A stretch of DNA of 60,641 bases. Source: Minisyncoccota bacterium. GTDB taxonomy: Bacteria; Patescibacteriota; Minisyncoccia; Phycocordibacterales; CAJBRS01. This document shows positions 28,708-31,098 of the stretch, piece after piece. Every line of letters starts with the position of its first letter. The stretch's first letter is position 1. The notes below the pieces were generated by a model. The model saw only the letters and a list, made by a program, of their open reading frames with translations, was not told the DNA's origin and did no database searches. The stretch is from contig DASRDX010000009.1 in the NCBI GenBank assembly GCA_035652395.1, positions 1-60,641 on the forward strand, read 5' to 3'. Both the position numbers and the translations under genes were made by a program.

Positions 28708-30753
28708 ATGGCTAAAGCGACTAAGGAGATAAAAGAGCGCATTGAGAAGCTCCGAGAGACGATTGAATACCATCGTTATCAGTATCACGTGCTGGATAAG
28801 CAGGAGATTTCCGATGAAGCCCGCGATTCTTTAATGAAAGAGCTGGTGGATCTGGAAAATCAGTATCCGGAACTCCGCACTGCCGACTCGCCATCTCAAA
28901 GAGTGGCAGGCAAACCTCTGCCGGAATTTAAGAAAGTTCGACATAAGGTAGCGCAGTGGTCTTTCAATGACGCTTTCAGTGAAGAGGATATCAAAAACTT
29001 TGACGCTCGAGTGAAACGTTTATTGAAAGCTGAATTAGGCAAGGAGATTTCCCCGGAATATGTTTGTGAGCTGAAAATTGACGGCCTGAAAATCGTTTTT
29101 GAATATGAAAAAGGGCTGCTCAAAACGGCTGCTACACGCGGAGATGGAGAAGTGGGGGAAGATGTCACCATGAACGTCCGAACCATTCAGTCAGTACCAC
29201 TTCGTCTTAAGGAAGCGGCGGATTTGATTGCCGAAGGAGAGGTTTGGATGAGAAAGAGCAGTCTGGAGAAACTTAATAAGGAGAGGGCGAAAAGCGGTTT
29301 ACCGCTTTTCGCCAATCCACGAAATGTCACGGCCGGCTCGATTCGTCAGCTCGATCCTGCCATGACTGCCTCAAGAAGGTTGGAGGCTTTTGTTTATGAT
29401 ATCGCGGAGTTAAGGGGGTCGGGGGAAGCGAAGCTTCCCCCGACCCAACTCGAAGAACTTCAGCTTCTCCAGAAGCTCGGCTTCAAAGTCAATTCTCACT
29501 ACAGACTTTGTGAAAATGTGGATGAGGTGATTGCCTATTGGAAAAAGTGGCAGGTTGAATCAAAAAAACAGGATTATCTGATTGACGGCATCGTTATCAA
29601 AGTTAATCGCCGCGATTATCAGGAGGCTTTAGGTTACACCGGCAAGGCCCCGCGCTTTGCCATTGCCTTCAAGTTTCCGGCCGAGCAAGTTACTACGGTC
29701 GTGGAAGATATCGTCCTTCAGGTGGGTCGAACCGGCACTATCACTCCGGTTGCTCACCTACGTCCGGTCTTAGTAGCCGGCTCAACTGTTTCCCGGGCCA
29801 CTCTTCATAATGAAGATGAAATTAAAAGGCTAGATGTACGAATTGGCGATACGGTGATCTTGCAAAAAGCCGGCGACGTTATTCCCGATATCGTCAGAGT
29901 CTTGACCGAAATGCGTACCGGTAAGGAAAAACCGTACAAATTTCCAACGCATGTTGCGGAGTGCGGGGGAGACGGACGAATTGAGAGAATTCCCGGCCAA
30001 GCGGCCTGGCGCTGTGTTAATAAAGGAGGAGCAGCTCAACATCGACGGGAACTTTATCATTTTGCTTCCAAGCACGCCTTTGATATTGATGGTCTCGGTC
30101 CGAAGATCATTGACAAACTCCTTGACAATCATCTGATCACCGCCGGCAGCGACATCTTTACTTTGAAAGCGGGAGATCTTTCGGAACTCGAAGGTTTTAA
30201 AGAAAAATCAGTTAACAATTTATTGAAAGCAATTGAGAAGGCACGGCACGTTAGTCTGCCGCGCCTGATTATCTCGCTTTCCATTCCGCAAGTTGGCGAA
30301 GAAACCGCTTATGATCTGGCCGACCATTTTGGCAACCTTGATTCTTTGCGAAAAGCTTCTTTGGAAGAGCTGCAAGCGATTGAAGGGGTGGGGGATGTTG
30401 TAGCCAGTTCGATTCATCGGTGGTTTGGAAATAAAAATAACAGAGAGCAGCTTTCTAAACTTCTGAAAATAATTGAAGTGGAGAATCCTAGAAAGACGAA
30501 AGGGGCGGCCGCCATCCCAACAGGCGGCCGCCTATCCGATAAAACTTTTGTTCTGACCGGCACCATGGAAAAGATGGACCGAGACGAAGCGAAAGAAAAG
30601 ATTCGCGCTCTTGGCGGCAGCGTTTCTGGATCCGTTTCAACCAAAACCGATTATGTCGTGGCGGGAGAAAATCCCGGATCAAAATTAACGAAAGCGGAAG
30701 AGCTCGGCGTGAAAGTGCTTGATGAAAAAGAATTTTTGAAGATGATTCAGTAA
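28708..30753 (+). CDS. ligA: NAD-dependent DNA ligase
   Basis: ELKIDG (adenylated Lys), TRGDG, FANPRN, AIAFKF, GRTG, C-terminal BRCT. Confidence 0.99.
29416..29446. repeat. Perfect 14-bp palindrome with GCGAAGC core inside the ligA CDS
   Basis: gggtcgggggaagc-gaa-gcttcccccgaccc, encoding [11 protein letters not shown]. Confidence 0.9.
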
Positions 30754-30780
30754 AGTCCGGCCTTCGGCCGGACTTTTTCT
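30752..30780 (+). terminator. Terminator after ligA
   Basis: aaagtccggcc-ttc-ggccggacttt followed by ttct. Confidence 0.85.
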
Positions 30781-30810
30781 AATAAGCCCAAAGTAAGCTA
30801 TAATTTTCTT

Positions 30811-31098
30811 ATGGAAATTAAAGATATTGGAAAGCTGGCCGCTCTCTCACGTATTAATTTGCCGGATTCGGAGAAAGAAAGTTTGCTCAAGGAAATGGAT
30901 GCCATTTTAGCATACGTGGATCAGGTCAAGGAGGCTACCGCGGCGCAAAGCGCCGCGGTAGCTCTCCATAAACCTTTCTCTCGAAATATCTTTAGAGAGG
31001 ATGCAGAGCCTCATCCCGCCGGTGCTTTTAACGAAGCTCTTCTGGAAAGTTCTCCAGACCGGCAAGGACAATATATTAAAGTGAAAAAGATACTTTAG
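30811..31098 (+). CDS. gatC: Asp/Glu-tRNA amidotransferase subunit C
   Basis: KLAALSRI, ILAYVDQV, NIFRED, YIKVKKIL; precedes gatA. Confidence 0.92.
   Translation: MEIKDIGKLAALSRINLPDSEKESLLKEMDAILAYVDQVKEATAAQSAAVALHKPFSRNIFREDAEPHPAGAFNEALLESSPDRQGQYIKVKKIL
30934..30962. repeat. Perfect 13-bp palindrome inside the gatC CDS
   Basis: gctaccgcggcgc-aaa-gcgccgcggtagc, encoding ATAAQSAAVA. Confidence 0.9.

Follow-up and report, generated by a model that had tools for sequence, protein, structure and literature searches.

Why do essential genes of a bacterial chromosome carry long, perfect palindromes in frame, predicted to be translated as part of otherwise intact proteins? The question is raised by a stretch of 60,641 nucleotides from a Minisyncoccota bacterium (assembly GCA_035652395.1, contig DASRDX010000009.1; hereafter the window, analysed as 60 kb), in which the DNA ligase gene ligA and the gatC gene each contain perfect hairpins within their coding sequence. 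Analysis reveals that such intragenic hairpins far exceed codon-based expectation, that they are almost always perfect, that they are restricted to a narrow clade of Paceibacteria and that their two arms change in concert. The pattern is consistent with inverted copying of adjacent sequence at the DNA level followed by selection on the encoded protein, an explanation favoured here with modest confidence.

Perfect hairpins within ligA and gatC

The ligA gene (28708–30753, + strand) encodes an NAD-dependent DNA ligase with the Pfam domains DNA_ligase_aden, OB, HHH_2 and BRCT, matches E. coli LigA (2OWO) with E = 3e-181, and carries three perfect hairpins. The second of these (29416–29446) occupies a variable loop of the adenylation domain and consists of a 14-bp perfect stem closed by a GAA loop on a GCGAAGC core; its sequence is GGGTCGGGGGAAGC-GAA-GCTTCCCCCGACCC, with arms at 29416–29429 and 29433–29446 that are 100% complementary and read in frame 0. 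The gatC gene (30811–31098, + strand; Pfam GatC) carries a 13-bp perfect stem with an AAA loop and a GCAAAGC core at 30934–30962, GCTACCGCGGCGC-AAA-GCGCCGCGGTAGC, whose arms (30934–30946 and 30950–30962) are again 100% complementary and in frame. This hairpin encodes ATAAQSAAVA and lies in the variable linker running from YVDQVKE to RNIFRED. When ligA hairpin 2 and the gatC hairpin are folded as single-stranded DNA (ssDNA), their z-scores relative to dinucleotide shuffles range from -5.9 to -8.8.

These two stems had been singled out in a first-pass annotation of the sequence, and their coordinates, pairing and reading frame are confirmed. The two shorter hairpins named alongside them are present and weak. 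Specifically, the recG element at 13084–13096 (CGGCC-TTC-GGCCG) is not distinguishable from chance because its stem of only 5 bp is too short, and the element in the Pif1-like helicase gene (45558–45576; TTC loop, encoding EAAFGGL) has a stem of only 8 bp.

Excess over chance and restriction to a narrow clade

Perfect stems with spacers of at most 11 nt were counted in the 58 coding sequences (CDS) of the window, with host genes assigned by Pfam, and compared with 200 shuffles of synonymous codons, which keep both the protein and the codon usage, and 200 shuffles of codon order. Stems of at least 10 bp number 13 against 0.67 expected, those of at least 12 bp number 6 against 0.07, and those of at least 13 bp number 4 against 0.02. 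None of the 200 shuffles of either kind attains the observed hairpin counts, and perfect hairpins within genes are 20–40 times as numerous as codon shuffling predicts, which bears out the earlier assertion that stems of this length lie beyond codon chance. The identical procedure applied to a control set of 43 annotated E. coli K-12 genes surrounding E. coli ligA finds 1 hairpin against 0.63 expected, which marks the excess as a feature of this genome rather than of genes at large. The window holds one hairpin of at least 10 bp per ~2 kb, and the stems have a GC content of 63% against a genome average of 43%. All coding hairpins are in frame within intact open reading frames (ORFs), the counts by codon phase are 8:7:5, with no bias at that sample size, and no regular position of the hairpins within genes is seen.

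By its LigA relatives the window belongs to the class Paceibacteria within Patescibacteria/CPR. The nearest public genomes by LigA identity are JBBQRF01 (L164, 78%), a JGI contig (L161, 76%) and JADGRH01 (L162, 74%), all of which share with the window the gene order type IV pilus genes, ligA, gatC, gatA. Assemblies L164 and L165 are 100% identical to each other, as are L162 and L163, and these pairs therefore provide no information on polymorphism. A metagenome scan returned no LigA relative above 71% identity; a protein search yielded one partial LigA from another source (P0002, protein sequence only), which is 99% identical, is the sole conspecific sequence and contains the same hairpin 2 peptide.

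The window together with L164, L161 and L162 comprises 105 kb of CDS, in which 20 perfect stems of at least 11 bp are found against 0.47 expected. One-mismatch hairpins in the same 105 kb number 5 where 1.2 are expected, with no G·T among the five mismatches. At the first unpaired pair flanking the stem, G·T occurs in 13 of 68 cases and A·C in 10 of 68, so that no enrichment of G·T is apparent there either. Intragenic perfect hairpins of at least 10 bp reach a density of 2.7 per 10 kb of CDS in the window and 4.5–10 in the L164, L161 and L162 loci, whereas the same density is 0–1.5 in nearly all of ~100 other Paceibacteria loci, with LigA at most 71% identical. Only a narrow clade, whose LigA is at least 74% identical, shows the excess.

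Anatomy of the inserts and concerted change of the arms

The adenylation-domain loop that contains ligA hairpin 2, bounded by YDIA and P-TQ-EEL, has neither insert nor hairpin in L161. Relative to L161, this loop has ~6 extra residues in the window, ~13 in L164 and ~26 in L162, and the window loop is also 3 residues longer than that of E. coli LigA. The right arm of hairpin 2 encodes the native KLPPT, which aligns to PKVPKT of the insert-free L161. The extra residues, GSGEA, come from the left arm, whose sequence is that of the KLPPT arm in reverse complement. At this same site L164 and L162 carry other, longer palindromic inserts, that of L162 including a 25-nt perfect palindrome in two tandem copies. 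A further ligA insert of L162, near residue ~120, forms a nested palindrome of 46 nt; in the same protein loop, L161 has a hairpin of 12 bp closed by GAA.

Comparison of the adenylation-loop hairpin of the window with its 9-bp orthologue in L164 shows how the arms change. The two share a common centre (G-AA of xxG AAG) and 9 pairs. In 3 of these both partners differ (G-C to A-T, A-T to C-G and G-C to C-G), and all 9 remain paired. On the right arm the substitutions are silent (CTT to TTG, CCC to CCG); their mirror images on the left arm alter the peptide. Moreover, across 141 Paceibacteria LigA genes, from which the loop was extracted by alignment, loop length correlates with the folding z-score (Spearman -0.40, p = 7e-7), longer loops folding more strongly, and z is -3 or lower in 27% of loops at least 5 residues above the mode compared with 1% of those at or near modal length.

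Hairpins also occupy two linkers. In the gatC linker, L164 has a different 12-bp stem whose centre lies ~1.5 nt away from that of the window, and distant relatives with longer gatC linkers have 9–20-bp stems there. The linker preceding the BRCT domain of LigA contains hairpin 3 (30504–30532), a 10-bp stem of the form GGCGGCCGCC-N9-GGCGGCCGCC in which one self-complementary 10-mer is present twice, and this linker is 4 residues longer than in L161. As a separate observation at the gatC site, the JGI contig of L161 ends (L161 12179–12213) in a poly-G/poly-C run exactly at the position of the hairpin, which may have broken the assembly.

Other hairpins span conserved residues. The first ligA hairpin (29286–29313; 13-bp perfect stem, TT spacer) lies over conserved residues with no indel, and its third codon positions pair with third positions. 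It forms 13 of 13 pairs in the window, 11 in L164 and 11 in L162, where a compensatory synonymous pair (GCG>GCA / TTC>TTT) is observed, and at most 7 contiguous in-register pairs at this site in the other 137 LigA genes. The encoded peptide, RAKSG(L/E)PLFA, is common in Paceibacteria and is hairpin-encoded only in the window, L164 and L162. For example, L059 has RAKSGEPLFA, identical to the L164 peptide, yet forms 5 contiguous pairs only and no hairpin.

In pilD (24962–25747), a 10-bp stem at 25077–25097 covers the conserved zinc-finger residues SCPHCGH and adjoins decayed remnants of two clade-wide PilD hairpins. L164, L161 and L162 keep these two hairpins, over the conserved TGR..GRS and HEL..ELV; the window has lost both and gained another. 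Among the three genomes that retain them the outer stems are kept, and the inner stems and loops differ yet stay complementary. A PilD insert of L161 reads, in order, as the native sequence coding for ELSNLVAG in reverse complement, a direct copy of that sequence and then the native sequence itself.

The comF gene (15822–16490, − strand) hosts three hairpins, namely a 15-bp stem at 15991–16024 over the conserved PQSSLPRTLRL with no indel, a 12-bp stem at 16172–16199 (AVFEDFQKPL) and an 11-bp stem with a 10-nt spacer at 16357–16388 (QSARKLSRADC). The comF hairpins differ among the three genomes compared; of the 15-bp stem, L167 has the outer 9 bp only and L168 has none. Because several hairpins lie over conserved residues, the first-pass description of the palindromes as sitting in low-conservation loops covers only part of the set. 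It suits the ligA loop and the gatC linker, and a gain of length over relatives is seen in the ligA loop, the gatC linker and the hairpin 3 linker, whereas ligA hairpin 1, PilD and ComF contradict it on both counts.

Loop preference, spacers and gene-end orientation

A perfect 12–25-bp stem is also present in nearly every intergenic gap of the window, and the coding and intergenic hairpins share the GAA/TTC loop. Across the 84 hairpins of the clade, the commonest spacer is 3 nt (22 of 84); GAA/TTC accounts for 12 of these 22 triloops against a background of 4.6%, and the GCGAAGC 7-mer core is found in 8 of the 22. The match to the intergenic family that had been proposed for the ligA and gatC stems is thereby upheld. 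A second spacer mode of 8–9 nt (20 of 84) includes GGCGGCCGCC-N9-GGCGGCCGCC in ligA and GGCCGCGGCC-N9-GGCCGCGGCC in a release-factor gene (36477–36505, KAAAENPGRGP). To our knowledge, the RNA triloop corresponding to the GCGAAGC core has no special stability. The DNA form, d(GCGAAGC), is an extraordinarily stable mini-hairpin with a melting temperature (Tm) of 76.5 °C and is nuclease-resistant (PMC13037366). These properties fit fold-back nucleation in ssDNA.

Orientation separates the gene-end members from the intragenic ones. At gene ends, GAA/TTC-triloop hairpins read UUC in the sense transcript in 7 of 7 cases (window 14460, 30752, 35025, 46847 and 48672; L164 14556; L162 17657), several of them with no obvious U-tail beyond the stem, which indicates that transcription-linked selection shapes at least the terminator class. 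Intragenic GAA/TTC-triloop hairpins read GAA in the sense strand in 3 cases and UUC in 3. A replication-strand cause for the switch between GAA and TTC along the window was considered and rejected, because gene orientation accounts for the switch; GC skew reveals no clear origin or terminus in the window. An interpretation of the intragenic hairpins as intrinsic terminators was likewise discarded, as they have no U-tract, are not at gene ends and are not flagged by a terminator scan. Specifically, no T-run follows 29446 or 30962, and the scan of 24000–36000 omits the ligA and gatC hairpins. The intergenic hairpins at 33251 and 35025 do combine a GC-rich stem with a U-tract, the terminator criterion. 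Rfam searches at the gathering threshold return the tmRNA and 7 tRNAs only, none of them at the hairpins.

Template switching as the favoured explanation

The explanation favoured, with the modest confidence stated above, is inverted duplication by template switching together with homogenisation of the arms, filtered by selection on the protein. According to this scheme, a short GC-rich inverted repeat would fold in ssDNA, often around a mini-hairpin of the d(GCGAAGC) type. The nascent strand would copy the complement of the neighbouring arm and then go back to the template, and the outcome would be an inverted duplication or conversion of adjacent native sequence that leaves the palindrome longer and perfected. 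The products would survive by two routes, either in variable loops and linkers, as short lineage-specific inserts with new residues, or at sites where codon degeneracy lets both arms retain conserved residues. A later change in one arm would be reverted or copied across, such that the arms would evolve in concert and the protein-constrained arm would dictate the peptide of the free arm. The rate of this process would be strongly raised in one narrow Paceibacteria clade, presumably through peculiar replication or hairpin-processing machinery. We infer the template-switch step, the part of the mini-hairpin in nucleation and the enzymes responsible from the patterns described above.

Two cases present the new arm as an inverted copy of adjacent older sequence, namely the L161 PilD insert and the left arm of ligA hairpin 2 in the window. 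The former, with its inverted and direct copies of adjacent native sequence, has a feature expected of template switching, signatures of which the first-pass annotation had proposed to look for. That annotation had also advanced an active mechanism generating or inserting palindromes; the lineage-specific making and keeping of palindromes and the creation or rewriting of peptide segments are supported, and the insertion of a mobile unit is not. Where selection maintains an RNA structure, G·U pairs and imperfect variants are normally to be expected. The Watson–Crick-only identity of the arms and the scarcity of mismatches therefore fit DNA-level copying rather than a selected RNA structure; the same reasoning has been applied to arm conversion in the mitochondrial DNA of Nematomorpha, the hairworms (PMC6649704). 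Template switching in bacteria is known to perfect and expand inverted repeats and to create hairpins (PMC5941160, PMC8794818, PMC8604942). A further argument for DNA origin, the extension of complementarity into spacers of 0–2 nt, was dropped, as the frequencies are near chance.

Several points weigh against this explanation. The template-switch event is deduced from four diverged genomes in which synonymous divergence (dS) is saturated, none having been observed directly, and the conservation and compensatory changes are equally predicted by selection for structure. The UUC orientation of all seven gene-end triloop hairpins implies transcription-related selection on that class, and the 8–9 nt spacer mode is unexplained by a template-switch model. 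Template switching is also universal and does not alone explain the extreme reached in this clade, a weakness that the authors of a study on the mitochondrial DNA of Nematomorpha raised for their own case (PMC6649704). Given this universality, a clade-specific factor must raise either the rate of switching or the survival of its products.

Competing explanations

The rival that survives best, although it is judged rather unlikely, holds that the hairpins are functional cis-elements recognised by their shape and kept by selection. In RNA they might serve as stabilisers of mRNA against exonucleases, as RNase III or other processing sites, or as sites of pausing or attenuation in long operons; in ssDNA they might serve priming or protein loading. 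Orthologous hairpins do persist at LigA identities of only 74–78%, with compensatory changes of which some alter the protein, but tolerance of G·U is absent, imperfect hairpins are almost absent, and hairpins are gained, lost and re-centred rapidly, as in the ~1.5-nt shift in gatC, the differences in comF and the two PilD losses of the window. The loops are strongly non-random and the gene-end hairpins strictly oriented (UUC 7/7), in agreement with such a role, whereas the intragenic loops occur in both orientations (3 GAA, 3 UUC) and their hairpins lack a U-tract and are missed by the terminator scan. GC-rich stems (63% vs 43%) and a density of about one hairpin of at least 10 bp per 2 kb also favour a function, and in ssDNA phages the sites where primase enters are known to bear mini-hairpin motifs (PMC13037366). 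Nevertheless, no regular position within genes is apparent, and sister lineages with the same genes and the same operon layout do without the trait.

Far less probable is that the hairpins are copies of a mobile palindrome able to enter genes in frame, in the manner of Rickettsia palindromic elements (RPEs), repetitive extragenic palindromes (REPs) with their REP-associated tyrosine transposases (RAYTs), or transposable elements of the miniature inverted-repeat type (MITEs). Several hairpins do coincide with lineage-specific lengthening of protein loops, but palindromes of 28–34 nt (20–46 nt overall) bring a gain of only 0–6 codons over relatives, and one arm is native coding sequence. A short GCGAAGC core is held in common, yet among the 31 window hairpins the longest word common to different arms is 9 nt, which equals the 95th percentile of shuffled arms, and no arm recurs elsewhere in the window save two self-complementary 10-mers. 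Among the 60 window proteins scanned with Pfam there is no transposase and no RAYT, HUH or GIY-YIG domain, so that the enzymatic signatures suggested in the first-pass annotation do not appear. Perfect arms are also unlike RPEs, which decay over time (PMC6649704). The lack of shared arm sequence and the lack of a transposase or RAYT in the window therefore argue that this is not an RPE-like mobile element; the analogy drawn earlier with RPEs fails on the unshared arms and on a length gain below the size of the palindrome. A further point in favour of mobility comes from outside the clade, where the ligA-loop inserts of L015, L028, L136 and L118 share a CCTTAGGGG core and could be a true family; a multi-copy check of this core, confined to short loci, finds the orthologous site and two unrelated terminators only.

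As an observation on those more distant loci, the ligA-loop inserts of L015, L028/L128, L136 and L118 are nested ~50-nt palindromes built on a CC(T)TTAGGGG...TTCAAGG core. These inserts may constitute a true repeat family there, unlike the hairpins of the window's clade.

Chance, composition or assembly artefact is scarcely credible, for although Ala/Gly/Pro-rich linkers made of GCC/GGC/GCG repeats are inherently self-complementary (as in gatC) and the L161 contig breaks in poly-G/poly-C at the gatC hairpin site, neither codon-preserving shuffle attains the observed counts (0/200 each), the E. coli control stands at expectation, the hairpins are in frame in intact and conserved genes, hairpins at orthologous positions are present in metagenome-assembled genomes that different studies built independently (L164, L161 and L162), and P0002, from another source, has the same peptide.

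Relation to known systems

The closest parallel is found in the mitochondrial DNA of Nematomorpha (PMC6649704), where perfect inverted repeats likewise lie in intact protein genes with both arms translated, some of them over conserved residues by virtue of codon degeneracy. As here, arm identity is all-or-none and imperfect forms show no comparable excess, gain and loss are scattered between related species, and no sequence family is present. The authors of that 2019 study favour arm conversion or template switching combined with a lineage-specific peculiarity of DNA maintenance (PMC6649704). The host differs, being a bacterial chromosome of the Candidate Phyla Radiation (CPR; Paceibacteria) here and an animal mitochondrion there, as does arm length: the present arms span 9–19 bp within genes and reach 25 bp in intergenic gaps, those of Nematomorpha up to 284 bp. 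Moreover, many of the present hairpins go together with short inserts in variable loops, and the set displays a strong preference for GAA/TTC triloops and the GCGAAGC core, unlike those of Nematomorpha, and the codon-phase bias reported for Nematomorpha is not seen in the 8:7:5 distribution.

Inverted repeats attributed to template switching (Lavi et al. 2018, PMC5941160; Mönttinen & Löytynoja 2022, PMC8794818; and, for protein innovation in yeast, PMC8604942) resemble those described here in being over-represented, conserved, perfect and short. They also share multi-nucleotide changes that render the arms complementary, inverted copies of adjacent sequence and effects on coding. The present case differs in the size of the excess, which is 20–40-fold, in its limitation to one clade (in E. 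coli genes the excess is undetectable by the same test) and in that the event is deduced rather than reconstructed.

RPEs, too, are palindromic DNA in essential genes of a reduced-genome bacterium; they are translated and add peptide segments in tolerant loops, as the hairpins of the ligA loop and the gatC linker would. They form a repeat family that is dispersed and has a consensus; each copy is about 100–150 bp long and inserts as a whole unit. The hairpins of the window form no such family, measure 20–46 nt, have one native arm and keep their arms perfect. Intrinsic terminators and REPs are similar in being GC-rich hairpins, and the intergenic members of the present set lie at gene ends, often with A/T runs and a GAA/UUC loop. 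REPs have repeated consensus sequences associated with RAYT transposases. Unlike the REP/RAYT system, the present hairpins lack a consensus, many are intragenic, and no Y1/HUH domain is encoded among the 60 window proteins.

On the favoured reading, the hairpins would represent in bacteria, with short arms, what the coding palindromes represent in Nematomorpha, and would be an extreme of the perfect-inverted-repeat bias described in Proteobacteria (PMC5941160). The suggestion of an undescribed system holds in part, in that the mechanism has precedents (PMC8794818, PMC5941160, PMC6649704), whereas no account of coding palindromes in CPR or other bacteria was found in a limited body of literature, which is not proof of novelty.

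It is also conceivable, though doubtful, that the clade possesses a dedicated or idiosyncratic hairpin-handling activity (of the replisome, a primase or a repair enzyme, or through loss of, for example, SbcCD or 3' exonucleases) that makes palindromes self-perpetuating, or that it uses them as shape-recognised cis-elements. Either way, if this is true, a process driven by DNA structure would keep rewriting essential proteins, and as a system of a bacterial chromosome it would have no equivalent described so far. Should the pattern extend genome-wide, this would be the first bacterial lineage known to us in which perfect hairpins occur in essential genes at tens of times expectation with concerted arms. 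The affected clade and its unaffected sisters would then offer a natural comparison for the controls on template switching and palindrome stability, and new peptide segments would be seen to enter conserved proteins by way of DNA structure, without point mutation or mobile elements as their source. Such a process would also serve as a warning that 'compensatory' covariation in coding sequence can arise without RNA function, and it would be a practical concern for CPR genome assembly and for the reading of protein insertions.

Further hairpins and neighbouring features

Beyond the genes discussed above, coding hairpins occur in several other hosts. The surface protein gene at 41430–45104 (YadA-head/S74) has three, at 41913–41936 (11 bp), 44667–44687 (9 bp) and 44964–44990 (12 bp). 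The Pif1-like helicase gene has a second hairpin at 46378–46407 (11 bp, 8-nt spacer), a DsbD-like gene has an 11-bp stem with a 9-nt spacer at 49693–49723, and a thioredoxin-like gene is also among the carriers identified in the window scan. Further 9-bp hairpins are located at 51093–51118, 52987–53004, 55184–55206 and, in recG, 11902–11928.

The intergenic class is represented by a gene-end hairpin over the ligA stop codon (30752–30776; 11 bp, TTC loop). Perfect intergenic stems of 12–25 bp lie at 3164–3200, 5548–5576, 7440–7467, 8136–8163, 8669–8709, 11227–11262, 14460–14494, 24491–24525, 33251–33285, 33603–33661, 35025–35055, 38089–38125, 40144–40182, 46847–46877, 48672–48710, 51925–51960 and 59374–59419. 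The hairpin at 5548–5576, with a 13-bp stem and a GCGAAGC core, is not at a gene end, unlike other intergenic members, and lies between divergently oriented DUF763 and bPH_2 genes. The one at 59374–59419, between DUF4383 and Gmad2-domain genes, is a 46-nt perfect palindrome with 23-bp arms and zero spacer, the longest zero-spacer palindrome of the window.

Two intergenic stems touch RNA genes. The smpB gene (8204–8650) is directly followed by the tmRNA gene (8707–9103), which encodes the tag peptide AKNLASRISPYFTAKDFQFAYALA, and the 16-bp perfect hairpin at 8669–8709 abuts the 5' end of the tmRNA. An 84-residue ORF at 33271–33525 is spurious; a tRNA cluster (Met, Met, Asp) occupies 33292–33612, with DNA 80–91% identical to relatives, and the 25-bp perfect stem at 33603–33661 begins within the 3' end of tRNA-Asp.

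RecG, the Pif1-like helicase and a DinB-type polymerase are encoded in the window, and none is tied to the hairpin trait. The polymerase gene, of the Y family (DinB/Pol IV-like), lies at 57799–58869; polymerase choice could bear on template switching. Between comF and recG, L168 (JADGRH01) carries at 14442–16789 a replication initiator of the REP_ORF2-G2P type and a large serine recombinase; this insertion looks like an integrated element, and the window is without it. Two very large proteins, encoded at 118–3162 and 41430–45104, combine YadA-head repeats with Peptidase_S74, an endosialidase intramolecular chaperone, and thus present a tail-fibre-like architecture within a CPR genome. Finally, a tRNA-Ile with anticodon UAU is located at 11761–11834; such a tRNA reads AUA directly, and not via a lysidine-modified CAU anticodon.

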